Positions 231 to 60,396 of a DNA stretch of 64,000 nt are shown piece after piece. Under the pieces are notes generated by a model, which had not been told where the DNA came from, searched no databases, and saw nothing but the letters and a program-made list of their open reading frames with translations. Positions within the stretch are counted from its first letter, which is position 1. Every line of letters begins with the position of its first letter. Location: the NCBI GenBank assembly GCA_965248925.1, contig CBDFLE010000006.1, forward strand, positions 5,120,001 to 5,184,000, written 5' to 3'. The DNA is from Candidatus Multivoradales bacterium. GTDB taxonomy: Bacteria > Acidobacteriota > Thermoanaerobaculia > Multivoradales > J023. Made by a program: the position numbers and the translations under genes.

Positions 231-472
231 TAGATCACCACCCTTGGCGAAGTTTCTCCTTAAGACGGTGGTCTCTCTGTGGCGCGTGGGCAGCTACTCC
301 CATGGCTCTGTTGAGGTAAAATACTGGCCGAATAGCGGGTTCTTTCACAGGTCTGTGGGGGGATTCAACAGTCAGTTCGATAGGCCTGGGCGGCGCCTAA
401 TCGGTGTCAGGGTGGGTCTGCGGGTCAAGTTTTATACTCCTGGAATTTTCTTCCGATGGCTTGCGGAGAACG
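231..472 (+). promoter_or_regulatory. Only sizeable intergenic spacer in the window; possible internal promoter and RBS of NRPS1
   Basis: Less GC-rich than the coding DNA. -10-like hexamers TAAAAT (317-322) and TATACT (433-438) lack a convincing -35. GGAGA at 465-469 precedes the ATG at 473. No Fur-box-like palindrome seen. Confidence 0.35.
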
Positions 473-12400: not shown

Positions 12401-15400
12401 CTTGAGGATCGCCAGCCGGACTATTGCAACAGGACTCTGCGGCTAGTGTTTCTGAGTGGAGACTGGATTCCGGTGTCGCTGCCCGATCGAATCCGACGGT
12501 TTTTTTCCGCCGCCGAAGTGGTCAGCCTGGGAGGTGCCACCGAAGCGACGGTGTGGTCGATCTTCCACCCGATCGGCGAAGTCGATCTATCGTCCGTCAG
12601 TATTCCCTACGGTCGGCCGCTCGATAACAACACTTTCTTTGTTCTCGACCGCAGTCTGAGCTTGGTGCCCACTGGCGTGGTCGGCGACCTTTACATTGGT
12701 GGTGTTGGCGTGGCTCGTGGCTATGCCGGTGATCCGCGCAAGACCGCGCAGGCTTTTGTACCTGACCGTTTCGCTGTTGGGGGCGAGCGCCTGTACCGCA
12801 CCGGTGACCTCGGCCGGATGCTCGACAGTGGCGCGATCGAGTTTCTCGGCCGCGCCGACCACCAGGTCAAGATCCGCGGGTTCCGGGTCGAACTCGGTGA
12901 GATCGAAAACACCCTGTTGCAGCATCCGCAAATCGTCGAGGCGGTAGTAGTGGTGCGAAGCGACCCGGCCGGTGACAAGTTGCTGTGCGCCTACCTCGTG
13001 GCTCGAGGTGGTTTCGAGCTGAACGCCGTTGAATTGCGCCGGCATCTCGGCGCAGCCTTGCCGGAGTACATGATCCCGGCGACCTACGTCTTCCTCGATC
13101 AGTTACCGCTGAATGCCAACAACAAACTCGATCGGCACCAGCTGCCGGATCCAGAGGTGGCCAATCTGGCGATCGCCGCCAGGTATGTGGAGCCGGAGAG
13201 CGTTCTGGAGAGTGAGCTGATCGATATCTGGCAGGAAGTGCTCGGCGTCGACGGTATCGGGACCCGGCATGACTTCTTTGAACTCGGTGGACACTCGCTC
13301 TCGGCGGTGCAAGTGATTACCCGGTTGCGCCAGAGCTACGGCATCGAGCTACCGCTGCGCGAGCTGTTCGATGGACCGACGGTGACCGAGCTGGCGGCTC
13401 GCTTGGGGCGGCTCGGGGCCAGCGGCGCCCGCAGCACTACAGCTCTGGAGATCGATCCGAGTCAGCGGCCAGATCCGGCCCCGCTATCGTTCTCTCAGGA
13501 GCGGCTGTGGTTCATCGATCAACTGGAGCCGGGCAACCCTGCCTACAATATCTCTACCGCCCTGCGTCTCAGAGGCGATCTCGATCTCGCTGCTCTGAGC
13601 GCCGCTTTCAGCGAGATCGTTCGTCGGCATGAGGTGTTGAGAACCACTTATCCGGCCGACCAGGGGCGACCTCTGATGGTGATCGCCGAGCCGGCAGCGG
13701 TGGCCGTCGGAGTTATCGATCTTGGGGCTATCGCCGCTGATCAGCGCCTCGATCAGGCTCGCGGGCTGGCCCAAAGAGTCGCTGAGCAGCCCTTCGATCT
13801 GGCCCGAGATTCGCTGTTGCGGGTAGTGGCGGTGCGGTTGGCGGAGGCTGATCACGTCGCTCTGCTGAGCATGCATCACATCGTTACCGATGGTTGGTCG
13901 ATGGGTATCTTGATTGACGAACTGGGAGTGCTCTACGGCAGCCGGGTGAGTGGCCGCGAAGGGAGCTTGCCGGAGCTACCGATTCAGTACGCGGACTATG
14001 CCCACTGGCAGCGACAGCGTCTGACTGACCGGGTGATCGAAAGCCAGCTTAACTTCTGGCGCGGCCAGCTGGAGGGCACCGCCACGGTGATCGATCTGCC
14101 CACCGATTTTCCGCGGCCGGCGCAGCGCAGCTCGCGTGGAGCGGTGGCTCGGGTGAGCATCGACCAGCGCTTGTCGGAGGCCCTGGCCGAGCTTGGCCGG
14201 GCGCGAGGGATGACCACGTTCATGGCCGTGTTGGCAGTGCTCGAGGTCTTACTACAACGCTACTCTGGCCAGAACGATTTCACTATCGGCACGCCGGTGA
14301 TGGGCCGGCACCGGGTGGAAACAGAAAGCTTGATCGGTTTCCTAGTCAACACCTTGGTGTTGCGTGCCGACCTCTCCGGGCAGCCCACTTTTGAATCGCT
14401 CTTGGAGCGGGTGCGAAGGATCAATCTGCGTGCTCACGAGCACCAGGAGCTGCCCTTCGAAAAGCTCGCCGAGCACCTTCAGCCGGACCGAGACCTCAGC
14501 CGCACACCCCTCTTCCAAGTTCTTTTCGTGCTGCAAAAGATGGCTAGCGAAGAGGCTCTGGAGTTGCCCGGCCTGACTCTCGAACCGCTGCGCGTTGATA
14601 CCGAAACGGCCCAGTTCGAGCTTACTTTGATCCTCAACGAGACGGTCGACGGTCTGACCGGATCCTTGATCTACAGTACAGATTTATTCACCGCCGACAG
14701 CATCGAGCGTCTGTGGCGGCATTTTGAGAGCTTGGCGCGGGCGGCGGTCGAGAATCCGGCGACCAAGATCGGCGATCTTGCGTTGCTCAGTGTTGCTGAG
14801 CGGCAAGAGCTGCTGAGTCTGGCCGTGGTCCGTGCACCAGCCTCGGCGAACGCTGGACGACTCACCCTGGTCGAGCTGTTTGCCCGCCAAGTCAAGGCTC
14901 GGCCAGACCATCTCGCGCTCAGCGCCGGTCAGCAGCATTGGACCTACCTGGAACTCGATCAGCAAACCGACCAGCTGGCGGCGCTGTTGCAGAGCCGCGG
15001 CGCCCGGCCGGAGGTGCTGATCGGCTTGTGCTGTGAGCGTGGTGCCAACATGGTGCTCGGCATCCTAAGCATTCTCAAAGCCGGCGCGGCCTACCTGCCG
15101 TTGGATCCGCGGTACCCGAAAGAGCGCCTAAGGCTGATTCTCGACGATTGTCGGGCACCGTTGTTGCTCAGTGAGCGGGCCGTGGCAGGTGACTTGCCCA
15201 GCCATGGTGCCGAGGTGGTCTTAGTCGATCAGCGGGCGGGTTTCGTTTCTGCCGCGTTGGCACCAGTGGCACTCGCGGCGGACCATCCGGTGTACGTGAT
15301 CTACACCTCCGGTTCTACCGGACGGCCGAAAGGGGTGCCGGTGAGCCACCGCAGTGTGGTCAGGCTGTTCGAGGCCTGCCAGCCGTGGTGTGAGTTTGGT

Positions 15401-18061
15401 GCTGAGGAAGTATGGGCGTTGTTTCATTCGTTCGCTTTCGATTTCTCGGTCTGGGAACTCTGGGGCGCGTTGCTGCACGGTGGGCGAGTGGTGGTAGTGC
15501 CCTATGCCACCAGCCGCTCGGCGGACGAGTTCCTCAACTTGCTCCGGCGGGAGCAGGTGACTGTTTTGAGCCAGACCCCTTCGGCTTTCCGCCAGTTGAT
15601 CGCGGCGGTAGAAAATGCCGCGGAGGCCGCCGAGGCTAGGGGCGAGGAATTCTCCACCGGCGCCTTGCGCTGGGTGATCTTCGGCGGCGAAGCGTTGGAG
15701 TTGCAGAGTCTGCGTCCCTGGTTCAAGCGCTTTGGCGACCGCCGGCCGCGGCTAGTCAACATGTATGGCATCACCGAAACAACCGTTCACGTTACCCAGC
15801 GGCATCTCGGCTTGCCGGACCTCGATGCTAGGCAGGGCTCGGTGATCGGCAAGGCCCTCGATCATCTGGGTATCTACCTGCTCGATAGGCACCTTCAGCT
15901 GCTGCCGCGGGGAGTAGTCGGCGAGATCTTTGTTGCCGGTGAGGGTCTCAGCCGCGGTTACCTGAGGCGGGCTGGCCTAACAGCCCTGCGTTTCGTGCCC
16001 CATCCCTACGCCGAAATGCCGGGTGAGCGGCTCTACCGCAGCGGGGATTTGGCCCGTTGGCGACGCGGTGGTGGCCTTGAATACCTCGGCCGCGCCGACA
16101 CCCAAGTCAAGATACGCGGTTTCCGGATCGAACTCGGTGAAGTCGAGGCGGTGCTGGCGGCACACCCAAGAGTGCGTCAAGCGCTGGTGTTGAAGAACGA
16201 GTTCAAGGCTGACGACGCCCGCTTAGTTGCTTATGCGGTGGTCGATACGGAGGAGCCGCCGACTCTCGATGAGCTGCTCACCCACCTGCATGCACAGCTG
16301 CCCGACTACATGGTGCCGGCCGCCTGCTGTCTGCTCGAAGCCTTTCCGCTGACCGCCCATGGCAAGATCGATCGTGGCTCCCTGCCGGAGGTCGAGACGG
16401 CACTAGTGAGGGCCGGTGGCGAGGCTCCGGTAACAACCGCCGAGGAGTTGCTGGCGGGGCTTTGGCAGGAGTTGTTGGGGGTCGAGGGGGTGGGTCGCCG
16501 GGATGATTTCTTCGACCTTGGCGGTCATTCTCTGCTCGCCACCCAACTAGTGTCGAGGCTGCGCGAGGTTTTTGCTCGCGAAGTATCCGTGCGGCAGATT
16601 TTCGAGCATCCGCGATTGGTCGACTTGGCTGCCAGCCTGGAAGACTCGGGGGTGGCTGAGCGACCACCACCGATCGTCCGCCGATCGTCCGCCGGGCGCC
16701 ATTTACTGTCTTTCCCCCAGCAGCGATTCTGGCTGCTTGAGCAGCTCGATCCAGGCTCTGCGGCCCACAATGTGATCGATGCTCTGCGCCTCGAAGGCGA
16801 GTTGGACGTTGCCGCGCTGGGACAGGCGCTGCAGCAGGTGTGGCAACGCCACGAGGTCTTGCGGGTGACTTTCTTCGAGGTCGACGGCCGGCCCTACCAG
16901 CGGCTCGGCTCGAAGTTGCAGCTGACCCTGCCGACGGTCGACCTGGGTGGTCTGGACAGCGCCGACCGGCAGCACCAACTGCGGCGTTGGATCGAGCGAG
17001 AAAGTACTGTTGGTTTCGATCTGGGCCGCGGACCCCTGCTGCGGGCGAAGCTGATTCGCCTGGCGAAGATCGAGCATGTCTTGCTGGTCAACCTCCACCA
17101 CATCGTTTGCGATGGTTGGTCAATGGGGCGCTTGATGGGCGAGGTCACCGGTTTCTACGGTGCCCTTAGGTCGAGGGATGGCCGGCTACCGGAAAAGCTA
17201 CCGGTGAGCTACTTGGACTATGTCGCCTGGCAGCGCGAGTGGCTCGACGAGGCTCGCCAAGAGGAGCAACTGGACTACTGGCGGCTACGCCTAGCCGGTG
17301 ATCCGCCACCGGTCGAGTTGCCGCTCGAGCTGCCCAAACCCCAAGTTGGTCACCGTCGCGGTGCGGCCCATGTCGAATGGCTGCCCAGCGAACTCAGTGG
17401 CGAGTTGGAACGGCTCGGCCGGCGGCAGGGCGCTACCTTGTTCATGACTTTGTTGGCGGCCTTTAAGGTATTGCTACTGCGGGCCTCGGGTATCGACGAT
17501 TTGGTGGTGGGAACTAATCTAGCCAACCGCAATCGGGTCGAACTAGAGGGCCTGGTAGGCAACTTCATCAACATGCTGGCCTTGCGCAGTGACCTTTCCG
17601 GCGCACCGTCTTTTCTCGAGGTGCTGGAGAGGGTACGGGTCACGGCACTCGAGGCCTACGCGCACCAGGATGTGCCGTACGAACAGGTGCTGCGGGAAGT
17701 ACTACCCCATCGCGCAGGCCGCGGCGCGGCGCTGATCCGCTGGATGCTGGCTTTCGAGAAGTATCCACCGAGCGGTGTCGAGCTGCCCGAACTGGTGGTG
17801 TCGGCGGTCGACTTCGAGGTTTCTTCCTCAGCTTTTGACCTCAGTCTCAATCTCAGTGAGGACGGCGAGCGGGGTATCAAGGCGATCTGGGTCTTCGATA
17901 CCGAGTTCTTTGGTCAGGCGGCAATCACCGCCCTGGCGCAGGATTTCCTGGCTGTGCTCGAGCAAGTGACCCTTAACCCGGAACGGCCGGTGAGTGAGGT
18001 GCGGATCGTCCATGAGGCGCCGACTTCGACTCTGGTCGACGCCTTCAATGACGACCTCTGA
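473..18061 (+). CDS. NRPS1, about 5862 aa: N-terminal docking helix-C-A(Ala)-T-C-A(Lys/Orn-like)-T-C-A(Thr)-T-C(modAA)-A(Cys-like)-T-C-A(Thr)-T-C
   Basis: The ORF track starts at 404, but ATG 473 has an RBS and begins a docking-type helix (MDRKRQIDGLSPAALAALVKNLRQKK). Six HHxxxD(G/A) C motifs, five YTSGS(T/S)GxPKG A3 motifs and five GG(H/D)S T motifs. Manual codes: DLFNNALTYK (Ala), DTENIGTIVK (basic, Lys-like), DFWNIGMVHK (Thr), DLYNFSLVWK (Cys-like), DFWSIGMVHK (Thr). Ends in a C domain followed by ...LVDAFNDDL*. Confidence 0.96.
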   Translation: MDRKRQIDGLSPAALAALVKNLRQKKKVVRRRIPRLGRSPAGDRLSFAQERFWFLDRLHPGSATYNIAGAVTLGGELDVAALRASLDALVARHQTLRTRFAERDGSPVQILFDPPLTPLPVIDLQQLLSSDRQQQADRLGARWARSPFELNRGPLLRCLLLHVSARQTQLVLGLHHIIADGWSCAIMVREIADGYSRWCVPEPPADGGWDAELPIQYADFADWQRQRLVDERLASLLDFWQPRLQGVPVLDLPTDGQRSASAAGLGGRLPLRIDRHLTSGLETLAKGAGVTLFVALVGVFGLLLRRFSGQQDFAVATPTAGRDRSELEPLIGCFVNTLLLRLRWSDNLLLDDLLSATGEQMAGALEHQELPFEELVRELDPQRSMATAPLAQVMLVLQGTPLDLRLGDLSLTLEELDTGSAKFDLLLNLTPCSGRLEGFLEYRRELFDRSTVDRLCRYLEALIAAFVGGRGRLLSQLSAAPRSERQQLLYEWSEASTAGSPNRGSVGDLLHRMVAAQSQRSPTSTALIDGASSWSYAQLDEAVGQLASRLVGAGVEPGQPVAVCLRRSPEMVVCLLAVMRAGAYYVPLDVGYPTERLHFIVTDSAVQVVLLGAALEVDLPPVATTLRIEPWRLAELSGTAARRDRECRPSVALASESLAYVIYTSGSTGQPKGVGISHSAATGLMHWARSQFSDSELSGVLAATSICFDLSVFELFAPLCWGGCAVLAEDALNLSGLPAADRVRLINTVPSVMAAVLRQGPLPASVETINLAGEALSGALVAQVYAAAGVRRVLNLYGPSEDTTYSTATEVSRSARVPTIGRPLPATEVYLLDRRGLPVPLGARGELALGGAHLARGYLRRSALTAERFVPHSFSAAAGARLYLTGDQARYRGAGELDFLGRLDHQVKVRGFRIELGEVAARLTEHPAVEEVVAVVEADADGGWLIAFWSGRSADSPAVSGAELRAFLATRLPDFMVPTWLLRLAELPRTANGKIDRRALPGLSEIRGQHSGEYIAPRDAVERTVADIWCQVLKLERVGALDEFFALGGHSLLATRVVARVREAFGIELPLRSVFEFSTVERSAEQIRSLQQAPGELAEWARIEAVSAAVLPLSFAQERLWFVEQLEPGAATHNVPAAVRLVGSLDRLALHAALAAIIERHAILRTVVRSTDGRGLQEFLPSLELLVPLTDLSALDSAAAEDQLALVFAASAQRPFDLEKGPLIRSQLLRLASAEHVLLLELHHLITDAWSMEILIRELTAFYGGKSLPPVELSYGDFALWQRRLLDERALEPHLDYWRRQLAAIEPLELPTDWPRPTQPSQRGGALPVVLGMRLSAALEDFSRRFAATPFMVLLATFAHQLSIYSGRCDIAIGSPVAGRQRIELEEMIGFFVNTLVLRVEVGGDPTFRQLLGRVRELTLQGQEHQQVPFARLVEELSPRRDLGITPLFQVMLVLQTAPRPVLAVEGLELEPLAVHNATAPFELTLSLAPVDDGLEGTFEYAAELFSAATVARFRDHFCHLLSAVVEQPNRRLSELSPLAAGERHQVLVSWAGTTLCLAEPSTVVERIDAAVGGRQAVAAVVDGDQRLSYGELDVAVVALAQRLRRFGVGPEIRVAVHLRRSARLIVALLAVMKCGGAYVPLDPRAPRRRLAQILDDAGVALVLSESQLLGDLPSTEVPVWTLGALEEAAAVADERAFATVAPELTAYLIYTSGSSGRPKGVAISHRALASYVVRAAERYDLGEGDRVLQLNSISFDTSAEEIFPALLAGATLVPWSGELESAGAFLASCQRVGVTVLNFPTAYWHTLVAEVEDDSTAHWPAGLRLVIIGGEQALAQDLGRWRGQLDGAVRLLNTYGPTEATIVASWWEDAGQRLSGATGLPIGEPTPNARTRVLDRCLRPLPIGVPGELCIGGEGLARGYFGNPRLTAELFVPDPYSSDAFDRLYRTGDLVRFTGGGELEFVGRRDHQVKIRGFRVELGEIEAALEADPGVRSAVVTATPSPAGDLRLAAYVVALDSVQLNLEDLATATASRLPNYMLPSAWGELDTLPLLASGKVNRRALASPEWRSESAERVAPVGESEVLLARLFGELLEVAQAGANDDFFRLGGHSLLAIQLVSRVRAALAVELPVRQVFEHPRLADLARRLDVLRHQQAAVELGSIERRPDSAPVELSYAQQRLWFLDQLQPESIAYHVPVVVELEGALDVDALRHSLARTMARHSVLRTIFPTRGGRPAAEVAATAVLGQPAVDLTALTHSAAEKQAQQIVLQSIRRPFDLGRGLLWRTLLLRLGERRHRLILTLHHIVTDGWSMGILLRELTIHYAALKSGEQIDLPALPVSYSDYASWQRGWLGSELIASQLAYWKEALAGAPAVLDLPTDRPRPANPRQLGALHGFRWSSSLSDRLSAFGRDRGATLFMVLRALFQLLLARQARQTDLVIGSPVAGRRQLEVEGLIGLFVNLLPLRAELSGEPTFEDFLEQVRDNTLAAFTHQDLPFERLVDELQPQRDLSYTPIFQTLLVLQNAPLKPAVVSDLELRPLQVDFGIAKFDLTLTFEEGSEGLEGLFEYDLELFDTTTVERFASRLQTLCESALAAPLQCCGRLDLLPPEERRQLLAQTPLRVAAPSLEPLHQLFEAQAARRPDAVALCLGSATLTYRALDRRAERLAAALRGLGVKRGARVGIFLDRSLDLVMAILAVLKMGAAYVPLDPANPAERLAYLLQDSGLGVLLTQRRLLASLPESNLRTVLLDAPWPPPLAGGVRSTPEDAAYVIYTSGSTGKPKGVEVTHANVTRLLSAARQGFDFDQLDAWSLFHSCAFDFSVWELWGALAYGGRLLVVPYWTSRSPDELLELLARQRVTVLNQTPSAFRQLIRAEQSAAAAPRLALRWVIFGGEALELESLRPWFERHGEERPRLVNMFGITETTVHVTYRRLLAADLDRLAGASPIGEPLPDLRLHLLDGYLEPLPIGVVGELYVAGAGIARGYLERPALTAERLVPDPFSGLPGERLYRSGDLARRLTSGDLAYVGRADQQVKIRGFRIELGEIEGALLEHPAVTEAAVLALDGGDGSKLAAYVVATAASDDLRAHLLALLPQYMVPEHIQTLSNLPLTANGKLDQRRLPVPRRQAGEPTAAHVPPTDPLARRVAAAWRQVLERQEIGMTDSFFTLGGDSIKAVRLAGLLNEEFDAGFKVRDVFRFQTVGEQTERLRGGAAGWTIEREHSAGLEQIARFRKGLLADAETAARLPPDWADVYPLSDIEKSMVYYSLLWPEEPVYHDQFVYFVELQQPAGFFRALELLIDRHHNLRCSFDLYSFAEQAKVVHRTAGPQWAVEDLSALAEDAQRRRVLQYQASDLARRFSFTGDLMWRFKLFRLAGERHCVVWTFHHAILDGWSNISLWVELSETCRLADLETRSALPPLATGYRDYVAVTLGRKGSAETTAFWRRYLAGHERSKLPFNRARRQLGTDTAMQIRRRDLGGELLERLRRQAARYELSLQGLCLAAHVFLLHVLSSVGDLVTGVVSNDRVGLADGEKVLGCFLTTLPLRLAADRHHHRLELVREVERRLIDVKAHEIPLVEIAAASGTRVTSGNPLFDTLFNYMDFHRLEGLQQNSCFRAQTSDQQVEAFGLENSEMTNTLFDLEVNTTLGGLGCVVKFSPEHFEPADIEKTLDLYGSLLHAFAEDLGAPLDAEQLLVSSSERQQLVQRYNHTGIAYKTDQLLHQPFERSCARAAARVAVSCAGKSLSYGELENRANQLAHYLIERGVEPGDNVGLIYARSLELAVGVLAILKAGAAYVPIEPSYPALRKSYIVNSSGIRWLLAADQSQTVLDFDQLVADEVMVLVPEPQVLAACSPRIPEVASSAAHRTRQLAYTIYTSGSTGRPKGVMIEHQQAINLLSWVNRQYRVGGDDVLLMLSSVCFDLSVYDLFGGWAAGAKVVIAELGDIREPGRTRDLLDAEGVTFWNSVPSTLGTLVKYLEDRQPDYCNRTLRLVFLSGDWIPVSLPDRIRRFFSAAEVVSLGGATEATVWSIFHPIGEVDLSSVSIPYGRPLDNNTFFVLDRSLSLVPTGVVGDLYIGGVGVARGYAGDPRKTAQAFVPDRFAVGGERLYRTGDLGRMLDSGAIEFLGRADHQVKIRGFRVELGEIENTLLQHPQIVEAVVVVRSDPAGDKLLCAYLVARGGFELNAVELRRHLGAALPEYMIPATYVFLDQLPLNANNKLDRHQLPDPEVANLAIAARYVEPESVLESELIDIWQEVLGVDGIGTRHDFFELGGHSLSAVQVITRLRQSYGIELPLRELFDGPTVTELAARLGRLGASGARSTTALEIDPSQRPDPAPLSFSQERLWFIDQLEPGNPAYNISTALRLRGDLDLAALSAAFSEIVRRHEVLRTTYPADQGRPLMVIAEPAAVAVGVIDLGAIAADQRLDQARGLAQRVAEQPFDLARDSLLRVVAVRLAEADHVALLSMHHIVTDGWSMGILIDELGVLYGSRVSGREGSLPELPIQYADYAHWQRQRLTDRVIESQLNFWRGQLEGTATVIDLPTDFPRPAQRSSRGAVARVSIDQRLSEALAELGRARGMTTFMAVLAVLEVLLQRYSGQNDFTIGTPVMGRHRVETESLIGFLVNTLVLRADLSGQPTFESLLERVRRINLRAHEHQELPFEKLAEHLQPDRDLSRTPLFQVLFVLQKMASEEALELPGLTLEPLRVDTETAQFELTLILNETVDGLTGSLIYSTDLFTADSIERLWRHFESLARAAVENPATKIGDLALLSVAERQELLSLAVVRAPASANAGRLTLVELFARQVKARPDHLALSAGQQHWTYLELDQQTDQLAALLQSRGARPEVLIGLCCERGANMVLGILSILKAGAAYLPLDPRYPKERLRLILDDCRAPLLLSERAVAGDLPSHGAEVVLVDQRAGFVSAALAPVALAADHPVYVIYTSGSTGRPKGVPVSHRSVVRLFEACQPWCEFGAEEVWALFHSFAFDFSVWELWGALLHGGRVVVVPYATSRSADEFLNLLRREQVTVLSQTPSAFRQLIAAVENAAEAAEARGEEFSTGALRWVIFGGEALELQSLRPWFKRFGDRRPRLVNMYGITETTVHVTQRHLGLPDLDARQGSVIGKALDHLGIYLLDRHLQLLPRGVVGEIFVAGEGLSRGYLRRAGLTALRFVPHPYAEMPGERLYRSGDLARWRRGGGLEYLGRADTQVKIRGFRIELGEVEAVLAAHPRVRQALVLKNEFKADDARLVAYAVVDTEEPPTLDELLTHLHAQLPDYMVPAACCLLEAFPLTAHGKIDRGSLPEVETALVRAGGEAPVTTAEELLAGLWQELLGVEGVGRRDDFFDLGGHSLLATQLVSRLREVFAREVSVRQIFEHPRLVDLAASLEDSGVAERPPPIVRRSSAGRHLLSFPQQRFWLLEQLDPGSAAHNVIDALRLEGELDVAALGQALQQVWQRHEVLRVTFFEVDGRPYQRLGSKLQLTLPTVDLGGLDSADRQHQLRRWIERESTVGFDLGRGPLLRAKLIRLAKIEHVLLVNLHHIVCDGWSMGRLMGEVTGFYGALRSRDGRLPEKLPVSYLDYVAWQREWLDEARQEEQLDYWRLRLAGDPPPVELPLELPKPQVGHRRGAAHVEWLPSELSGELERLGRRQGATLFMTLLAAFKVLLLRASGIDDLVVGTNLANRNRVELEGLVGNFINMLALRSDLSGAPSFLEVLERVRVTALEAYAHQDVPYEQVLREVLPHRAGRGAALIRWMLAFEKYPPSGVELPELVVSAVDFEVSSSAFDLSLNLSEDGERGIKAIWVFDTEFFGQAAITALAQDFLAVLEQVTLNPERPVSEVRIVHEAPTSTLVDAFNDDL

Positions 18062-18098
18062 CCCCTGGCTTGGATCGGCCGACGGAGAACATTTCAAT

Positions 18099-19619
18099 AT
18101 GGCAACAGTGCGCCTCTTGACCCTCGATTTCTACACTTTGGAGGAGCTTCGTCAGTGGCTTGAAGACGACCTCGAGCTAGTGCTGGATGATGCAGTTCGC
18201 CAGAGCATTCAAGCGGGTGCCGAATTCGTCCAACGCAAGGCCCAAGAGGACTGCTTCATCTATGGTGTCAATACCGGTTTTGGTTCGCTGTGCGAGACTC
18301 GGGTCGACAGTGATGAGATCGAGTTGCTGCAGTACAACCATGTGGTTTCGCACGCCTGCGGCGTCGGCCAACTGGTGCCTGAGCACACCGCGCGGATGTT
18401 GCTGTTAATCAAGCTACTGACCTTTCGCTCCGGTCGCACCGGTATCTCTCTGCCGACCGTTGGACGGATCGTCGAAATGTGGAATCGGCGGATCACTCCG
18501 GCGATCCCGCGCAAGGGTTCAGTGGGCGCCAGCGGTGATCTCGCGCCACTGGCCCACATGTCGTTGCCGCTGCTGGGTCTCGGCCGGGTCTATTACCGCG
18601 GCGAGGTAATAGACAGTGCGGAGATGTTGGCCGCCGAAGGTTGGCAGCCCCTCGAACTCAAAGCCAAGGAAGGTCTCGCTTTGACCAACGGCGTGCAGTA
18701 CATCAACTCGGTAGCGGTGGAAAGTGTGCTGTGGGCTATCGAGTTGGCCCGTTGCGCCGATTTGGCGGCGGCGATGAGTATCCAGGCGTTTAGTGCCGCC
18801 AGCAGTTTCTATCACCCGCGGTACCACGAAACCTCGTACCACTTAGAACGACGCACGGTTGCTGGCAACTTGAGATTGCTACTCGACGGCAGCAACCACG
18901 ACCGCTTGCCGACCTGTAACTCATCGCAGCAAGACCCCTACTCGTTCCGCTGCATTCCGCAGGTTCACGGGGCCATCCGACAAGTGCTCGGTTTCGTTGC
19001 CGGAGTGATCGAGAATGAGGTCAATGGAGTTTCAGACAACCCGCTGTTCTTCGCCGAGGCCGATGAGATCCACTACGGCGGCAATTTGCACGGCGAGTCC
19101 ACCGCCTTGGCCCTAGATAACTTGGCGATCGCTATTTCGGAGCTGTCTAATATTTCTGAGCGCCGCACCTACCAGCTGCTCTCGGGTAGTCGTGGCCTAC
19201 CCAGCTTCTTGGTTGCCAAGCCAGGCGCCAACTCCGGCTTCATGATCGTGCAATACACCTCGGCGGCGTTGCTCAATGAGAACAAACTGCTAGCCAGTCC
19301 GGCCAGCGTCGACACTATTCCGACCTGTCAGTTGCAGGAGGATCACGTCAGCATGGGTGCTACCTCGGCCCACAAACTCCTGCAAATCCTGACTAACTCC
19401 GAACGCATCCTGGCCACCGAAATGCTGATCGCCGCCCAGGCGATCGATTTCAACCAGGGATTGGAACTGTCAGAGATCACCCGGGCGGTACACCAGGGAC
19501 TGCGCTCGGTGGTGCCGTTTTTGGACAACGACCGGGTGATGAGCGACGATATGGAAACCGCCTTCGAGTTCTTCGCTGGCAACAAACGCGAGTGGAGTAG
19601 CTCGCTAGGGCTGAGCTGA
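18099..19619 (+). CDS. MIO-dependent aromatic amino acid ammonia-lyase/aminomutase family protein, histidine ammonia-lyase (HutH)-like, about 506 aa
   Basis: Motifs YGVNTGFGSL, SHACGVG, GSVGASGDLAPLAH (MIO-forming Ala-Ser-Gly at 18528-18536), KEGLALTNG, QDPYSFRCIPQVHG, SDNP, SERR and QEDHVSM. ATG 18099 has GGAG at 18084-18087; the track start at 17994 overlaps NRPS1. Confidence 0.93.
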   Translation: MATVRLLTLDFYTLEELRQWLEDDLELVLDDAVRQSIQAGAEFVQRKAQEDCFIYGVNTGFGSLCETRVDSDEIELLQYNHVVSHACGVGQLVPEHTARMLLLIKLLTFRSGRTGISLPTVGRIVEMWNRRITPAIPRKGSVGASGDLAPLAHMSLPLLGLGRVYYRGEVIDSAEMLAAEGWQPLELKAKEGLALTNGVQYINSVAVESVLWAIELARCADLAAAMSIQAFSAASSFYHPRYHETSYHLERRTVAGNLRLLLDGSNHDRLPTCNSSQQDPYSFRCIPQVHGAIRQVLGFVAGVIENEVNGVSDNPLFFAEADEIHYGGNLHGESTALALDNLAIAISELSNISERRTYQLLSGSRGLPSFLVAKPGANSGFMIVQYTSAALLNENKLLASPASVDTIPTCQLQEDHVSMGATSAHKLLQILTNSERILATEMLIAAQAIDFNQGLELSEITRAVHQGLRSVVPFLDNDRVMSDDMETAFEFFAGNKREWSSSLGLS

Positions 19620-19623
19620 GCCA

Positions 19624-22600
19624 GTGAAGGCTGAACCAACATTGGCCAGGGTCAGCGCAGCCAGAAGGCCGGCGGGCACTTTGCAACGCCCCTTCGAGCC
19701 GATTCATCGATGGATCGGCCGGCGAGCTGCCAGCGCTCCCCGGAGCATCGCGATCGAATTCGCCGGTGGCTCTCTGACCTTTGGCGAGCTGGCGCAAGCC
19801 GTGGCCGAGCTGGTCGGTAGATTGCGTCGGGCCGGGGTCGACCAGGGCGATTTGGTCGGTGTTGCGACCAGCGATCGAGAGCAAGTGGTGGTGGCGCTGT
19901 TAGCAGTGCTCGAAGTCGGCGGCCTATTCATGCCGATCGACCCAGAATTCCAGGCCGCGACTCTCGGCAGCTTGATCACCGCCGCCGAGCCGTCTTGGTG
20001 GTTGGTGGCGCCGGAGCAAGCCGAGGCGATCAGGGCGGCGAGCCGCGGCTGTGGTGTCGATTGCAGCTGTCTGGATCTTTTTCCGGTCGCTAAGAAAGAG
20101 GAGAAGAGGGCCGCTGGAGCGGCGCCGGCAGCGCTCTCTGTGATCGATCCGGAGCTACCTTGCTACGTCTATTTCACCTCCGGATCCAGTGGCCAACCGA
20201 AGGGCATTGTCGGACGCCTGAAGGCCCTCGATCACTACGCGGGCTGGATGCATGACGCTTTCGACGTCGGCTCAGATTGCCGCTTCAGCCAGCTCATCTC
20301 GCCGGCCTGGGATGGCTTCTTGCTCGATGTCTTCGTGCCCCTGTCGGCAGGCGGTACGGTGGTGGCACCGCCTGATCGAACCACCCTGCTCGATGGCGCT
20401 CGATTGGTGCGCTGGCTCGACCAAGAACAGATCAGCCACATGCATTGCACCCCCTCCTTGCTGCGCAGCCTGCTCAATCAGCCATTGCAGCCGCGGCTGT
20501 TCAGAGCCTTGCGCTGGCTGATGTTGGTTGGCGAAGCGGTGTTGCCTTCGGATGTCGCCCGCTGGATGGAGATCTTCGGCGAGCGGGTTCGACTGGTCAA
20601 CTTATATGGTCCTAGCGAAACTACCCTGACCAAGCTCTTCTATTGCATCTCAAGTGCCGATGGGGCCGCCGATACAGTGCCGATCGGTGGTCCGATGCCA
20701 GGGGCCAGGGTCTTGGTGGTCGACGAGCGTGGCCAACCTTGTCCGCCAGGGCGGGAGGGAGAAATCCTGATCCGCACCCCCTATCGTTCGTTGGGCTATC
20801 TGCGGCAACCCGAGCTCAGTGCCAAGGTCTTTGTCCAGAACCCGTTCAGCGATCGGACTGGCGATCTGGTCTATCGCACCGGCGACCTGGGACGCACGCG
20901 CGCTGATGGTTTGCTGGAGTTTATCGGCCGCCGCGATGGTCAAGTGAAGATCCGCGGCGTCCGCGTCGAGCTAGTGCCGATCGAGAGCCTGCTGTCGTCG
21001 CATCCGGCGGTGAACGAAGTGGTGGTGGTCGAACGGCGTGACCGTCAGGGTGGCAACTTCCTCTGTGCCTTCCTCAGTCTCGGCCAGCCGGTCGAAAGAG
21101 GCGAGCTACGCGCTTTTCTACTCTCCAGCCTTCCCGAGATCAAAGTGCCGTCGGCTTTCGTGGTGATGGAAAGTCTACCGCGGACTTTGACTGGCAAGAT
21201 CGATCGAGGCGCGCTACCTGAGCCGAACCAGTCGCTGCTCGGCCGGGGCCAGTCCTACCGTCAGCCCCGCAATCCGGTCGAGCAGAAGTTGGCCGCAGTC
21301 TTCGGCCGCATTCTGAATCTCGAGCGAGTCGGCATCGATGACAGCTTCTTCGAACTCGGTGGCCATTCGCTATTGTCGATGGAGCTGTTGTCGGGGATTC
21401 GGGATGAACTCGGCGTCGAGCTTCCCCTGGGGCAGATTTTCGAGCATCCGACCATCGTCGCCCTGGCGCGCGTGGTCGCTCAGGGGGCGCCGGTCAGTGC
21501 TGCCCGCTCCGCCATCTCGCCGGTCGAGCTCGGCGATGGAGAGTTTCCTCTGTCTTTCTCACAGCAACGCCTGTGGTTCGTGGATCAGCTGTCGCACGAC
21601 GCCACGTTCCTCAACATTGCCGACGCTGTCGAATTGCGAGGAGAAGTTTCGCCAGAGGTGTTGCGGCGCGCGCTGGAGCGCACCGTCGAACGTCAGGAGG
21701 CTCTGCGCACGGCCTTCGCGGAGCGCGGTGGCGAGCCCGTCCAGATGGTGGGTGAGCCGTGGTCGGTAGCGCTGCCAGAAGTCGATCTTCGGAGTTTGCC
21801 AGAGGCGCAGAGAGATAGCTTGGCAAGTCGACATCTGGCGCAAGAAAGTCGCCGGGTCTTCGATCTGCGCAACGGCCGGCTGCTGCGCTGCCGGCTGCTG
21901 CGTCTGGCCGATCAACGCTACTTGCTGATCTGCGTGATCCATCACATCATCGCTGATTGGTGGTCTTTTGGTGTGCTGGTGCGCGAGCTGACGTCGGCCT
22001 ACGAAGATCTGGCCGCGGGGCGTTCTTGCACCCTGCCGGAACTCGCCGTGCAAGGTCGCGATTTCGCGCTCTGGGAGCGTCGCTGGATGGTCGACGAAGT
22101 GCTGGAGCAACAGCTGGTCTACTGGCGAGAGCGATTGCAAGGTTGTGCGACTTTTCATCCTCTACCGCTCGACTTTCCGCGGCCCAGCCGCCAGATCCAT
22201 GCTGGCGACCAAGTCGACTTCGAGTGGCCGCGGCCGCTGGCTGCTCGGCTGGTGAGGCTTGCCGAGGAGCAGGGTTGCAGCCGTTTCATGCTCGGTTTGG
22301 CGCTCTTCCAGATAGTTGTGGCGCATCTGGTCAAGACCGACGATGTGGTGATCAGTGCGCCGGTGAGCTTTCGCGATCGGCCCGAGGTCGAGCCGTTGAT
22401 CGGTTTCTTCGTCAACACGCTGTTGTTTCGTGCTCAGCTTGCCGTCGAACTCGACTTTGGCGGTTTTCTGCTCCAAGTTCGACAGCGGGTGGTGGAAGCA
22501 TTCGATCATCAGCACCTGCCGCTCGAGCGCTTGATCGAGGAGCGGGCGCCACAGCGCAGCCTCGACCACACCCCGTTGTTGCAGATCGGTTACAGCTTTT

Positions 22601-23013
22601 TCGAGCTGGCCTCGACGACTGCTCTGCGGCTCAATTCTTTGCGGATCGAGCCTTTTCCGGTTGTCGTACAGGAGGTTCAGTTCGAGCTCAATCTGATTGT
22701 TCGTGAGACCGGCGATGGCCTTGCCGGAACCTTGCAGTACCAAACCGCGTTGTTCGAGCGCTCGACTGTCGAGCGCTTTGCCGATCTCTTGGTGAGCTTG
22801 GCCGAAGCGGTTGCAGAACATCCTGAGGCCAGCCTTGGCGAGCTTCGCCAGCGGCTTGTCACGGCGGAGCAAAGTTCTCTTGAGGCTCGCCGTGAGGTGC
22901 TTGGAGGGTGGGCTCGACAGCGCTTCTCGAAACGCCGCCGAACCGTCGTGCGAGCGGTCAGCCGAGCCGCGTCTAACAACTCAGCCAGTGAGGACTCATG
23001 CAAGACTCCCTAG
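19624..23013 (+). CDS. NRPS2, 1129 aa: A(unknown substrate)-T-C plus basic C-terminal tail
   Basis: A motifs YFTSGSSGQPKG, NLYGPSE, YRTGDL and TGKIDR. T motif FFELGGHSL. C motif variant HHIIADWWS. Manual code about DGLHMVLLTK. The GTG start follows the lyase stop after a 4-nt gap; the exact start is uncertain. Confidence 0.93.
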   Translation: MKAEPTLARVSAARRPAGTLQRPFEPIHRWIGRRAASAPRSIAIEFAGGSLTFGELAQAVAELVGRLRRAGVDQGDLVGVATSDREQVVVALLAVLEVGGLFMPIDPEFQAATLGSLITAAEPSWWLVAPEQAEAIRAASRGCGVDCSCLDLFPVAKKEEKRAAGAAPAALSVIDPELPCYVYFTSGSSGQPKGIVGRLKALDHYAGWMHDAFDVGSDCRFSQLISPAWDGFLLDVFVPLSAGGTVVAPPDRTTLLDGARLVRWLDQEQISHMHCTPSLLRSLLNQPLQPRLFRALRWLMLVGEAVLPSDVARWMEIFGERVRLVNLYGPSETTLTKLFYCISSADGAADTVPIGGPMPGARVLVVDERGQPCPPGREGEILIRTPYRSLGYLRQPELSAKVFVQNPFSDRTGDLVYRTGDLGRTRADGLLEFIGRRDGQVKIRGVRVELVPIESLLSSHPAVNEVVVVERRDRQGGNFLCAFLSLGQPVERGELRAFLLSSLPEIKVPSAFVVMESLPRTLTGKIDRGALPEPNQSLLGRGQSYRQPRNPVEQKLAAVFGRILNLERVGIDDSFFELGGHSLLSMELLSGIRDELGVELPLGQIFEHPTIVALARVVAQGAPVSAARSAISPVELGDGEFPLSFSQQRLWFVDQLSHDATFLNIADAVELRGEVSPEVLRRALERTVERQEALRTAFAERGGEPVQMVGEPWSVALPEVDLRSLPEAQRDSLASRHLAQESRRVFDLRNGRLLRCRLLRLADQRYLLICVIHHIIADWWSFGVLVRELTSAYEDLAAGRSCTLPELAVQGRDFALWERRWMVDEVLEQQLVYWRERLQGCATFHPLPLDFPRPSRQIHAGDQVDFEWPRPLAARLVRLAEEQGCSRFMLGLALFQIVVAHLVKTDDVVISAPVSFRDRPEVEPLIGFFVNTLLFRAQLAVELDFGGFLLQVRQRVVEAFDHQHLPLERLIEERAPQRSLDHTPLLQIGYSFFELASTTALRLNSLRIEPFPVVVQEVQFELNLIVRETGDGLAGTLQYQTALFERSTVERFADLLVSLAEAVAEHPEASLGELRQRLVTAEQSSLEARREVLGGWARQRFSKRRRTVVRAVSRAASNNSASEDSCKTP

Positions 23014-26000
23014 AAGGATTCCACCTTTCGAGCCAGCAGCTTCGGCTGTGGAGTGTGGCGGTTCGGGGTCAGGGCATGACCCCGCGAGCGGTGGCAAGGA
23101 TCGAATTCCACGGCGAGCTGGATCCTCAGGCCCTGTCTGCGGCGGCGAGCCAGCTGGTGGCGCGGCATGAGATTTTGCGTACCGCTTTTCGTTGCCTGCC
23201 AGGGATGAGCCGGCCGCTGCAGGTGATCGAGGAGCCGGCCGCGCCCTTGATCGAGAGGCGGGATTTCAGTGGCATCGACGAGCAGCTGGCCGCGGTGGCC
23301 GTGGCGCAAGCTTGCATCGAGTTGCAAGAGTGCGAACTCGACCTCGAAGTCGGGGTTGCATGGCGAATGCTCTGCTTACGGTTGGGCAGGGATCGCCACC
23401 AGCTGGTGTGGGTGCTACCAGCATTGTGCTGTGATGCCGCGAGCATGGTCAACTTGACCGCCGAGTTGAACCAGGCTTATCGGCAGGGGGCGGCAACCCT
23501 GGACGAGGCCACCCAATATGCCGACATCTCTAGTTGGCAGGCCGAGCTTCTGGAGGCTGATGAAGCCAGTGAGGGGAGGGCCTTTTGGCGCCGCTTGGGC
23601 GCCGCACTACCGGTCCTCGGCGACTTGCCCTTCGAACGACGCCAGGCGGAGTCCGCCGCTGGCGAGCGGGGGACCTCGCGGGTCCGGTTGCCGGCGGTGT
23701 TGGTAGACGCTCTGCGGGTATCGGCCGCAGCTCACGGCGCTGAGCCCAAAGTGCTGCTGGCGGTGGTTTGGGCGACCTTGCTGGGCCGGCTGCTGGAATC
23801 CTCCCGAGTGGCTCTAGGGATGCTTGTCGAGGGGCGTCCCTATGAAGAGATGGTGACCGCGGTGGGCCCCTACGCGCGCTGGGTGCCGCTCGATTTCCCC
23901 CTGCCAGACGAGGCCGATTTTGGCGCCTTGGTCGAGTCCACGGCGGCCCGTTTGAACGAACTCGAGGATTGGCTGGACAGCTACGACGAGCATGCTCTAG
24001 CAACCGCCTCCGAAGCTGCCGATGGGCATCGATTCGGCTTCGAATTCGAATCTCTCACTGCTGTGGTTTCCGCCGACAAGTTTCGCCTGGTGGAGCGTCG
24101 GTGGACTTCAGAGCCCTTCGAACTTCTATTGAAAGTGTGCCTCGCGGCGGCTGGCGACAGTGACGCCGAGAGTCATGTCGAACTGCATTGGAATTCTGCC
24201 CGCTGGCTGGGTTGGGAGCTCGAGCAGCTGCCATATTGGTATCGGCACCTACTCACCGACGCGGTGGAGCGGGGCGGGGCCTTGACAGCGTTGGCATGGG
24301 GTGACGCTGCCCCTCGCCGCGCTCGCTTGGCGGCGCTGAGCAGTACAGCGATCGATGTTGGCAGCGATGCCTTGCTACCGCGGCTGGTCGAGCACCAGGC
24401 CAGAATGACGCCACAACGTTGGGCGGTCAGCAGCTCCCAGGGCGAGCTCAACTATGCCGAGTTGGTTGAGCGCGCCACGCGGCTGGCGCGGCAACTGCGC
24501 GCGCGGGGCGTTGGTCAGGGAGACCGAGTAGGGATTGCAGTGCAGCGATCGCTGGCGATGGTGGTCGGCATGTTGGCGATCTGGAAGACTGGAGCTGCCT
24601 ATGTGCCGCTCGACCCAAGCTATCCGGCCGAGCGCTTACGCTTCATGATCGAGGATTCGGACCTCGCCTTGTTGCTCACCCACGAAGGCGGTTTGGCCGA
24701 CTTGGACGGCTTCACTGATCGCTGTTTGCTGGTTGATCCAGCGGGGGTTGGTGAGGGGTCGACAGCTGGCGGGGAAGGATTGCCCGAAGTTTGCTCATCG
24801 GCGCCCGCTTACGTCATCTACACCTCGGGCTCGACCGGACGGCCGAAGGGAGTAGTGGTAGCCCATCGGGCGATCGCCAATCGCTTATCGTGGATGCGCC
24901 GCGCCCAGCCGTTGGCGGCCGACGATCGGGTGCTGCAGAAAACTCCTTTCAGCTTCGATGCCTCGATTTGGGAGATCTTCCTTCCTCTGATCAGCGGCGC
25001 CGGCTTGGTGTTGGCCGAGCCTGGTGGGCAGCGTGACAACGCCTACTTGCTGGCGACCGTCGTCGCCCAGCGCATTACTGTGCTGCAATTGGTGCCATCG
25101 CAGCTGGCGGTTTTTCTACAGCAGCCTGATATTGAAGAGGGCTGTCGAGGGCTGCGGCGGATGTACTGTGGCGGGGAGGCTTTCGCGGTCCACCTGGCGG
25201 CTCGTTTTCATCAGCTTTGTGGTGCCGAGCTGTACAACCTCTATGGCCCCACCGAGGCTTCCATCGATGTTGCTTGGCAGCAGAGCTCGGGCGCCATGAG
25301 CGACGAAAGTGGCCGCGCCGCCTGGTTGCCGATCGGCCGGGCGCTTGACAACGTCCGCTTGTTGGTGGTCGATCGGCGTCTGCGCCAGCAGCCCTGGGGA
25401 GTGTCCGGCGAGCTGCTGATCGCTGGTGTCGGCCTGGCCCAGGGCTATCACCATCGGCCCGGCCTGACCGCCGAGAGGTTCTGCCCTGATCCAGCGGGGG
25501 TCGAAGTCGGTGGTCGTGGCTATCACTCCGGCGACCGGGTGCGGCGGCTACGCGACGGTGGGCTCGAGTTCCTTGGTCGCCTCGACGAGCAGGTCAAGTT
25601 GCGGGGCTTTCGCATCGAGCTGGGTGAGATCAATACTCTGATCGAGCGTCAGCCGGGTGTGCGCGAGGCGGCGACGGTGCTCCACGGCGACAGCATGGAC
25701 CAGATCCTGGCTACTTACGTGGTGCCGAGCGACCAGCAGTTGGAGGTCGAAAGTCTCGGACGGGTGCTGGCGGAGTGGCTGCCTGAGCACATGATTCCGA
25801 CGGTTTTCGTCGAACTCGATACTTTGCCGCGGCAGCCCAACGGCAAGCTCGATCGGGGTGCTCTACCCGAGCCACGGCGGCAACGTGGCGAACAGGTGCA
25901 GTGGGTGGCGCCGCGCAATTCTACCGAAGAGCTGTTGGCCGGATTCTGGTGCGAGCTGTTGGGAGTCGACGAGGTTGGTATCGACGATGATTTTTTCGCC

Positions 26001-51211: not shown

Positions 51212-51218
51212 CGCGATT

Positions 51219-55788
<4,570 letters not shown>

Positions 55789-55796
<8 letters not shown>

Positions 55797-58700: not shown

Positions 58701-60396
58701 GGGAGAGGCTGAGTGCTTGCTGGCCGAGGTGTGGGAAGAGGTTCTTGGTATGGAACGGATTGGTAGCGAGGACAACTTTTTCGAACTCGGTGGTGACTCG
58801 ATCTTGGCCATTCAGGTGATCGCCCGCGCCAGCCGTGCCGGCCTGACTGTCGATCCCAGGCAAATCTTCCAGTATCAGACCATAGCCGAACTCGCTTTAG
58901 TGGCGGTGGAAGGAGCCGGACCGGTGGTGGCCGAGCAGGGTTTGGTAGCGGGGATGGCACCGCTAACACCGATCCAGCAGTGGTTTTTCGCTCAGGGTTT
59001 CGAACAGCCGCAGCATTGGAATCAGAGCTTGATGTTCGACAGCCCCAAGCCCCTCGAAGTAGGAGTGCTAGGGGCCGCGATAAGCGGGTTGATGGATCAT
59101 CACGACGCGCTCCGCTCACGTTTCCAGATCAGCGAGGAGCGCCAGCAGCAGATCTTTGAGCGCTCAGCACCCGAACAGGGGAGAGTGACTCATCTCGACC
59201 TCTCGCGGCTGCGGGCCGAGGAGGGTAGTGGCCAGATTTCCTCGCTGGCGGCCCAAGCCCAGGCCGCCCTCGATCTGCGGTGCGGACCGGTGTTGCGCGC
59301 CATCTACTTCGAGATCGGCGGCGAGGTTGGCCACCGGCTGTTGTTGGTGATACACCATCTGGTGATCGATGGCGTTTCTTGGCGGGTCTTGTTCGAGGAT
59401 CTGGCGGCGCTCTACGGTCAGCTGGCCAGTGGCCAGGCGCCGAGCCTGCCGGCCAAGACGACCTCCTACAAGAGCTGGGCCGAGAAGTCCGTTGCCCACG
59501 TCGCCGCCGGTGCCCTCGACCAAGAGCTGGAGTTCTGGCGGGCGGCGCGGCCCCTAGGCTCAGCAGGGCTGCCTCTCGATTTTCCGTCCGGCGACAACAG
59601 CCTGATGTCTGCTGATGGGGTGGTCGTAGAACTCGACGCCGATCTCACTCGCTCCCTGTTGCAGGAGGTACCGGCAGCATACGGCACCGAGATCAACGAT
59701 CTGCTGCTGAGCGCCCTCCTACTCACCTTGAGCGGCGGCGCTGGCGACCGCGAACTCTTGCTCGAGATGGAAGGGCATGGCCGTGAGATGGTCTTCGCCG
59801 ATGTCGATCTGTCGCGAACCGTCGGTTGGTTCACCACCCACTACCCAGTGCTGCTGCGCGGGCCCGTTGGCGCAGATCTGGGTGCCACGTTAATCGCGGT
59901 CAAGGAGAACTTGCGCCAGCTGCCGGCCCGCGGAATCGGCTACGGCATGCTGCGCTACCTGCGCCCGGCTGACGCCGTTGGCGAAGGGCTGGGTGCCCAG
60001 CCGGAGCCGACGCTGAGTTTCAACTACCTGGGACAGCTGGATTCGGCGGTCGATCAAGCCGCCGGATTTTTGCAGCCGGCCGCTGAGGACACCGGACCCT
60101 CGTCGTATGTCGGCAGCCATCGGTACCGCCAGCTAGAGATCAGCGTCATGGTCATCGGTGGCAAATTGCGCAGCAACTGGATCTTCAGCAAGGAACTGCA
60201 CCGGCGGGCCACCATCGAAGGCTGGGCCGGTGATTTCCTCAACCACTTGAAGGTGCTGATCGAGCATTGTCTGTCGCCCGCGGTGGGTGCGCACACACCT
60301 TCGGATTTTCCTCTGGCCGGACTCGACCAAGACAGTCTGGAGCAGATCTCGAAGTTGCTTGGCGAGAATGACGATCTTTGGGAGGAAGCCGGTTGA
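55789..60396 (+). CDS. NRPS6, about 1535 aa: interface (I) domain-A(Asp)-T-E plus COM donor
   Basis: Starts MSSLPVEGFRASPQQRRLW and has LPALCADRRS. Asp code DLTKVGHVGK, T motif GGDSI. Epimerase motifs PLTPIQQWF, HHLVIDGVSW, EGHGRE, RTVGWFT and FNYLGQ, then the TPSDFPLA COM tail. Overlaps NRPS5 by 8 nt. Confidence 0.95.

Follow-up and report, generated by a model that had tools for sequence, protein, structure and literature searches.

A gene for an enzyme of the 4-methylideneimidazol-5-one (MIO) family, related to histidine ammonia-lyase (HAL), lies in the middle of an NRPS (non-ribosomal peptide synthetase) assembly line in the genome of a Candidatus Multivoradales bacterium (Acidobacteriota; assembly GCA_965248925.1, contig CBDFLE010000006.1). 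The whole 64,000-nucleotide stretch of this contig that was analysed is referred to here as the window, and all its large genes are on the + strand. The NRPS gene ahead of the MIO gene, N1, ends in a condensation (C) domain and the one behind it, N2, starts with an adenylation (A) and a carrier (T) domain, with the MIO gene alone between them at distances of 37 and 4 nt. This layout had been stated in a preliminary description of the DNA, made from the sequence alone, and is confirmed by the sequence and the domain map. The features of the junction are:

404-18061, + strand: N1, 5885 aa, five C-A-T modules with one more C domain at the end (open reading frame list and domain map)
16700-17998, + strand: N1 terminal C domain, residues 5433-5865, with a T domain just before it and the motif HHIVCDGWS intact
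18084-18089, + strand: putative ribosome-binding site GGAGAA, 9 nt ahead of the MIO gene ATG (read from the sequence)
18099-19619, + strand: clade-B HAL-like MIO enzyme gene (P0001; clade B is defined below), 506 aa, PF00221 E 3.5e-164
19624-23013, + strand: N2, A-T-C, 1129 aa, GTG start 4 nt past the MIO gene stop
19720-21198, + strand: N2 A domain, specificity code DGLHMVLLTK, Asp235 kept, Leu at 239
21283-21474, + strand: N2 T (carrier) domain
21538-22845, + strand: N2 C domain, motif HHIIADWWS

N1 stops at 18059-18061, and the MIO gene runs from its ATG at 18099 to a stop codon at 19617-19619. On the acceptor side, the A-T of N2 is partnered by the terminal C domain of N1. Upstream, a 2886-aa gene that ends at window position 227 has a fatty acyl-AMP ligase (FAAL)-like AMP-binding domain and a carrier domain as its first domains; because the assembly line starts there, upstream of the window and with a FAAL-like loader, the N2 module is mid-chain. 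Apart from an ABC transporter gene that begins at 63467, the window contains only NRPS genes. No hut genes are found in it, in agreement with the preliminary description, the family-level search having covered urocanase, with hutI and hutG not searched by family.

The MIO protein matches PF00221 over model positions 2-465 of 466, with the E-value given above, and contains the MIO-forming ASG triad, the stretch VVSHACG and the motif QEDHVSM. Residues are numbered by alignment to Pseudomonas putida HAL: the catalytic Tyr53 of that enzyme corresponds to Tyr55 in the MIO protein, and the histidine-binding His83 and Glu414 and the carboxylate-binding Arg283 are kept. In fold family, MIO triad, and catalytic and histidine-binding residues, the protein is thus like catabolic HutH (P. 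putida HAL, PDB 1B8F and 1GKM; ~356 bits), from which it differs in having no hut neighbours, in being a second copy, in carrying the substitutions T197V and F329L, and in an equivalog score just under the cut-off. Two PF00221 genes are present in the genome. Apart from the window copy there is one at 2.206 Mb of contig C6, ~4 kb from urocanase, and the sole urocanase match in the genome (C6:2211944) adjoins it, 2.9 Mb from the window copy. The window protein is 42% identical to this HutH of its own genome. Its identity to full-length HALs does not exceed 45% in 40 genomes of its family and order, the exception among those genomes being a 63%-identical fragment at a contig end in genome G014.

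The protein was also scored with curated NCBI family models. With the hutH equivalog TIGR01225 (cut-off 539.15) the window protein reaches 538.4, borderline below, and the genome's own HutH 652.6; with the HAL subfamily model NF006871 (cut-off 524) it passes at 564.6 (own HutH, 702). Its score with the tyrosine aminomutase model TIGR03832 (cut-off 501) is 337.3 (own HutH, 321.9), and it fails two further aminomutase equivalogs, TIGR04475 (327.9 versus 800) and TIGR04473 (130.6 versus 1250). Four other NRPS-linked clade-B proteins score 545-563 with the hutH equivalog, 568-577 with the HAL subfamily and 320-361 with the tyrosine aminomutase model. The MIO gene is a dedicated second copy, not the housekeeping hutH.

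Among its 120 listed database matches, the window protein is 59-70% identical to the 119 others. We define clade B as the window protein, these 119 nearest matches and three further NRPS-linked proteins, i.e. 123 sequences; named sources among the listed matches are Polyangium, Phaselicystis, Stigmatella, Chromobacterium vaccinii, Pyrinomonadaceae and Chloroflexota. A tree was computed from 154 sequences, the 123 of clade B and 31 hutU-linked HALs (30 taken at random and the genome's own), and in it clade B is set apart from the hutU-linked HALs by a long branch. Tyr53, Ser82, His83, the ASG triad, Asp145, Asn195, Tyr280, Arg283 and Glu414 are invariant in 123/123 clade-B sequences, and Gln277 is kept in 118/123. 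T197V and F329L are found in 123/123 clade-B sequences versus 0/31 hutU-linked HALs, and further clade-B-wide changes include S112T, E227Q, R244S, S325F/Y and P333S. The diagnostic codons in the window are:

18528-18536, + strand: Ala144-Ser145-Gly146 codons, MIO-forming triad, invariant in 123/123 clade-B sequences
18693-18695, + strand: Val199, equivalent to Thr197 of P. putida HAL; V in 123/123 clade-B sequences, T in 31/31 hutU-linked HALs
19086-19088, + strand: Leu330, equivalent to Phe329 of P. putida HAL; L in 123/123 clade-B sequences, F in 31/31 hutU-linked HALs

The preliminary description had named two histidine-lyase signatures, of which the Glu of QEDHVSM stands and the 'SH' position, taken alone, does not: the solved tyrosine aminomutase SgTAM also reads S-H there. 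At the place of the clade-B QEDH, SgTAM and a tyrosine aminomutase (TAM)-like protein of genome G162, described below, read NQDV. Because 'SH' is also present in SgTAM, it is by Glu414, its QEDH motif and its family scores that the enzyme is assigned to the histidine type.

Clade B is rare. In the window's phylum, a close match is found in 2/401 genomes, its own genome included. Close matches are found in 2/301 genomes of the class of G433 (Anaerolineae) and in 1/301 of the family of G432 (Pyrinomonadaceae). A generic HAL peptide dominated the pattern scans of contigs from genomes and metagenomes, which yielded only two close loci and one 2-kb fragment, and a plasmid search gave no clade-B gene among 14 matches, all of <60% identity. 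The clade-B member P0024 of Phaselicystis flava (AYM54407.1) is present as a GenBank/UniRef entry only, without a genome contig, and may stem from a deposited gene cluster; a literature search, which did not cover supplementary files, found no Phaselicystis flava cluster with AYM54407.1. A separate set of HAL-like matches, in the related genomes G002, G003, G006, G007, G010, G012, G020, G024, G026, G029, G033, G037 and G039, comes in two pieces, query ~52-325 at 37-43% identity and ~322-460 at 44-53%, within open frames of 550-1187 aa; these frames may represent a different MIO paralogue or a fusion.

The preliminary description had also proposed to search other genomes for the same synteny, and NRPS modules do adjoin the clade-B gene elsewhere: in 6/6 loci with readable flanks, from three bacterial groups, NRPS genes directly abut it, and hutU is absent from the stretch read at all six. 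The arrangements are listed below, where A* is the partner A-domain type, code DA(C/A)Q(M/L)ALLAK, MT a methyltransferase, TE a thioesterase and PKS a polyketide synthase:

Window: [..T-C], MIO gene, [A-T-C]
G014 (same family; two contig ends): PKS modules, CmlA-like hydroxylase, [C-A*-T], gene, [C-A-T-C..]
G162:C141 (same phylum): [..MT..T], gene, [C-A*-T-C..]
G433 (Anaerolineae): gene, [truncated C-A*-T-C-A-T], [C-A-T], [C-A-T-TE], type II TE, sulfotransferase
G434 (Anaerolineae): gene, [C without HH-A*-T-C-A-T-TE], type II TE, sulfotransferase
G894 (Pyrinomonadaceae): [C-A*(methyltransferase inserted)-T], gene, [C-A(Asp)-T-TE]

In 176 HAL loci of lower identity, NRPS A and C domains flank the gene at 0 and hutU is present at 90; this count omits eight rows (clade-B loci or repeats), the G014 fragment and a flankless 2-kb clade-B-like fragment (L098). 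All five other clade-B genomes also carry a higher-scoring canonical PF00221 gene, which hutU adjoins in G014 and G433. From these sequence comparisons, the MIO gene is best explained as encoding a specialised, secondary-metabolic member of the HAL family.

We then considered the A domains that accompany clade-B genes. Specificity codes were obtained from alignments anchored on a threonine-type domain of N1, the N1 codes themselves being taken from alignment. At the five loci other than the window, the module next to the clade-B gene reads DACQMALLAK, DACQLALLAK or DAAQLALLAK. These partner-type A domains, six including a second G162 copy on contig C131, form one clade with support of 1.0, and Asp235, the residue that binds the substrate amine in A domains, is kept in 6/6. 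Both Anaerolineae NRPSs carry Val at 235 in their second A domain, and therefore Asp235 is not kept by every A domain in these synthetases. This second domain has the code VAWLTSLSNK (clusters L004/L198 on G433:C13 and L005/L199 on G434:C89), in which Val235 suggests a substrate without an alpha-amine.

Ahead of the partner A domain, G162 (both loci), G014 and G894 have a C domain with its HHxxxDG intact; a dead or truncated one precedes it only at the two Anaerolineae loci, in which this module stands first in line. A building block that starts the chain in some lines and accepts it behind active C domains in others should carry an amine, and urocanate has none. The earlier argument that urocanate would make a poor mid-chain extender is supported: with Asp235 kept, and with an intact C domain in front at the window locus and at three of the other five, an amine-bearing product fits better than urocanate. 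The beta-tyrosine code of SgcC1 presumably shares Asp235, Gln278, Leu322 and Ala331 with the partner type. A solved-structure search with the A domains returned generic NRPS matches only, and literature searches for the printed codes, supplementary files not covered, found nothing.

In G162, a second locus, on contig C131, is paralogous to that on C141: over its first 560 residues, the NRPS there shares 63% identity with the gene lying upstream of the clade-B gene. Its features are:

L207 (G162:C131): [..T-C-A*(with an insert)-T], MIO gene, [C-A-T..]
L207 (G162:C131), 8599-10245, minus strand: P0242 MIO gene, between the DAAQLALLAK NRPS module and a further NRPS/PKS gene

P0242 passes the NCBIfam tyrosine 2,3-aminomutase equivalog (520.3 versus a cut-off of 501), and the closest solved structure to it is SgTAM, at 410 bits. 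One A-domain type is thus paired with a TAM-like enzyme at one locus and with clade-B enzymes at five. Because the A* type also serves a TAM-like enzyme, clade B can be read as a supplier of a beta-amino acid, and this is the strongest indirect support for that reading. The DAAQLALLAK A domain on G162:C131 also carries an unexplained insert of ~390 aa.

The A domain of N2 belongs to a different lineage. Its code is DGLHMVLLTK, and no other A domain in the cluster is as divergent; its 119 nearest listed database relatives, of which the named ones are nearly all from Acidobacteriota, are 40-52% identical to it. Position 239 is Arg or Lys in 119/119 of these relatives and Leu in N2 alone of the 120, and His278 is found in 118/119. 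The codes among the 119 include DGRHLALMAK (n=47), DGKHVTILSK (n=26) and DARHLALMTK (n=12). In the A-domain tree, the N2 domain falls in the Arg/Lys239 family (15/15, support 0.998), apart from the partner-type clade (6/6, support 1.0), and among the genome's 60 A domains it is the best match, at 264 bits, to the partner type of the other loci. We infer that an acid-recognising A domain has been re-tuned here through loss of the basic residue; such re-tuning would suit a substrate in which a neutral ring replaces a carboxylate.

The preliminary description had viewed the MIO gene as inserted into a split module, which did not hold. The A domain comes first, within 40 residues of the start, in 114/119 of the nearest N2 relatives, and a sister of the N2 A domain on contig C5 of the same genome (47% identical, code DARHLALMTK) belongs to a second large NRPS region (C5:2260052-2269230, L202) that has the same C / A-T-C / C*-A junction without any gene in between, C* being a divergent condensation-like domain without HHxxxD. 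The split between C and A-T-C is therefore a trait of the A-domain family, and the MIO gene sits in a pre-existing junction. A-first NRPS proteins with Arg/Lys239 and His278 are common in Acidobacteriota. Recent horizontal insertion of the MIO gene was also considered and rejected for want of a compositional signal: the gene's GC of 0.583 is low on account of codon positions 1 and 2, and its GC3 of 0.724 is within the cluster range, 34/174 windows being equal or lower.

Since relatives in three bacterial groups occupy the same kind of place, the MIO gene probably feeds a histidine-derived amino acid, perhaps beta-histidine, into the lipopeptide. The conserved binding residues suggest histidine as the substrate, Asp235 and the intact upstream C domains point to a product that bears an amine, and mutase chemistry would follow by analogy with known pairs of MIO aminomutases and A domains. 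On that analogy, the proposal that the enzyme is a histidine 2,3-aminomutase supplying beta-histidine seems to us evenly poised between right and wrong. The enzyme would form its MIO cofactor and bind free L-histidine, the amine would be taken onto the MIO and re-added at C3 to give beta-histidine, the N2 A domain would activate this product and load it onto the N2 carrier domain, and the terminal C domain of N1 would couple the growing lipopeptide chain to the beta-histidine amine. The wider proposal, that clade B is a cross-phylum, HAL-derived family of histidine 2,3-aminomutases marked by T197V and F329L, making beta-histidine for non-ribosomal peptides with a dedicated A-domain type, replaced in the window by a re-tuned acid-type A domain without Arg239, is put forward tentatively, at just short of an even chance.

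To our knowledge, MIO aminomutases are known for phenylalanine and tyrosine only. Such enzymes reportedly work with an A domain to feed beta-aryl-beta-amino acids into their products, as in the pairs SgcC4/SgcC1 (C-1027), CmdF/CmdD (chondramides) and AdmH/AdmJ (andrimid). For the habitasporins, HabB/HabA is described as a MIO aminomutase with a dedicated A domain (PMC9802438). The system described here is like these pairs in that the MIO gene is directly beside an NRPS, in that the partner A domain keeps Asp235 and has an unpredictable code, and in that an A domain of the same type stands beside a tyrosine 2,3-aminomutase equivalog in G162. It is unlike them in that the enzyme is of the HAL type, with Glu414 and QEDH, passing the HAL model and failing the aminomutase models. 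The preliminary description knew of no characterised histidine aminomutase, and the Conclusion of a 2022 review agrees, stating that there was no genomic evidence for one (PMC9002059). Literature searches for histidine aminomutase or beta-histidine, supplementary files not covered, returned only this review and nothing later.

A different precedent is provided by Stigmatella aurantiaca, in which a HAL encoded far from the cluster is reported to make the urocanate that primes the imidacin PKS (PMC11301661). That system is like the present one in tying a HAL-family enzyme to secondary metabolism and in A-domain loading, and unlike it in that the HAL gene is distant and the product a starter unit, whereas here the cluster contains the gene, and the partner module stands mid-chain, preceded by an active C domain.

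Several findings weigh against the aminomutase proposal. Comparison of residues and models found no sequence feature of mutase chemistry in the enzyme or in clade B. Clade B keeps all residues with a known role in lyase activity, and the plain lyase reaction is therefore fully compatible with these sequences; the protein passes the HAL subfamily model and is far below the aminomutase models. T197V and F329L were tried as marks of a mutase and rejected: SgTAM reads NGTS and NFHG at the 197 and 329 places, keeping Thr and Phe, and as the two switches are not common to SgTAM they cannot count as such marks. The N2 A domain is not of the conserved partner type, so the argument from the other loci transfers to the window only by analogy. 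The context is known for only 6 clade-B genes, ~115 others being unplaced, and the A-domain counts in other genomes scored only 3 candidates per genome. Finally, a clade-B member occurs in Stigmatella, the genus in which a HAL is reported to make urocanate for the imidacins (PMC11301661).

One alternative is that an ordinary HAL was recruited to the cluster and that urocanate enters as an acyl unit, either as a starter or on a side chain, as in the imidacins. We regard this as rather unlikely. It would account for the invariance of the HAL catalytic and histidine-binding residues in clade B and for the score with the HAL subfamily model, and in the Stigmatella precedent an A domain does load urocanate (PMC11301661). 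In the Anaerolineae, moreover, the partner A domain is in the first module with a dead or truncated C domain ahead of it, where an acid without an amine could fit, and the FAAL-like loader that starts the window's line could in principle accept an acrylic acid. However, Asp235 is kept in 6/6 partner-type A domains and in N2; an intact C domain, which needs a nucleophilic amine, precedes the partner module in both G162 loci, G014, G894 and the window; and the same A type is paired, at P0242, with a tyrosine aminomutase equivalog and not with a lyase. N2 itself was considered as a urocanate loader, its order being A-T-C, and was rejected in that role, since the 2886-aa FAAL-like gene precedes N1, the N1 terminal C domain is intact and Asp235 is kept.

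The MIO gene could instead be unrelated to the N2 module, being a passenger or serving local histidine or nitrogen handling, with N2 taking an ordinary alpha-amino acid. The origin of the N2 A domain in a large A-first family that occurs without a MIO gene, once in this genome, would be in keeping with this, as would the gene-free C / A-T-C junction and a GC3 that is ordinary for the cluster. We nevertheless find it clearly improbable, because 6/6 clade-B genes are embedded in NRPS loci in three groups, with spacings here of 37 and 4 nt, the same partner A code recurs at 5/6 loci, N2 is the only one of 120 family members without Arg/Lys at 239, and clade B has invariant substitutions of its own. 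Least probable of all, and in our view very doubtful, is a shift in substrate, by which clade B would act, as aminomutase or as lyase, on tyrosine or some other aromatic amino acid and not on histidine. Its basis is the partner A code, identical to the one beside the tyrosine-aminomutase-like gene of G162, and the His at the switch position, which is common to SgTAM. Against these stand Glu414 in 123/123 clade-B sequences and an invariant QEDH, where SgTAM and the G162 TAM-like protein read NQDV, and a HAL score of 564 bits versus 337 bits with the TAM model.

Together, the locus and its relatives constitute a candidate family defined by its sequence, which has two diagnostic residues and a partner A domain that recurs, and for which the ~12-kb Anaerolineae locus that starts at 40.7 kb of G434:C89, with a two-module NRPS, a type II thioesterase and a sulfotransferase stands out as a compact test system. 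Were the beta-histidine proposal true, this amino acid would join the non-ribosomal building blocks, genome-mining tools would gain a new specificity rule, and a naturally occurring lyase and mutase that are close relatives would be available for tracing what decides between the two reactions. If the enzymes are lyases only, clade B would still mark an unrecognised use of urocanate in peptide natural products.

The remainder of the assembly line follows N2 on the same strand:

22998-63470, + strand: N3 to N7 (domain map, His motifs and A codes)
22998-24407: opening condensation-like domain of N3, resembling those of N5 and N6 and standing ahead of a Gln-like A domain
50060-51208: TauD-type dioxygenase domain fused to the C-terminus of N4
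51108-52577 (N5) and 55741-57180 (N6): opening condensation-like domains without HHxxxD, followed by Asp-type A domains, code DLTKVGHVGK
60378-63470: N7, consisting of C, an A remnant, T and TE

N3 has the organisation C*-A-T-C-A-T, N4 comprises six modules and the C-terminal TauD domain, N5 is C*-A(Asp)-T-C and N6 is C*-A(Asp)-T-E. We take the N4 TauD domain and the N5/N6 arrangement to resemble the beta-hydroxyaspartate 'interface domain' layout of siderophore synthetases. Just ahead of the 2886-aa gene with the FAAL-like loader, on the upstream side, are genes for a polyprenyl synthase, a prenyltransferase-fold protein and a squalene-hopene-cyclase-like protein (G000:C6:5106639-5120227, L200). 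At the other end of the line, the N7 remnant corresponds to the C-terminal third of an A domain, its residues 484-638 aligning to query positions 334-492, and the final module seems to have no working A domain of its own.

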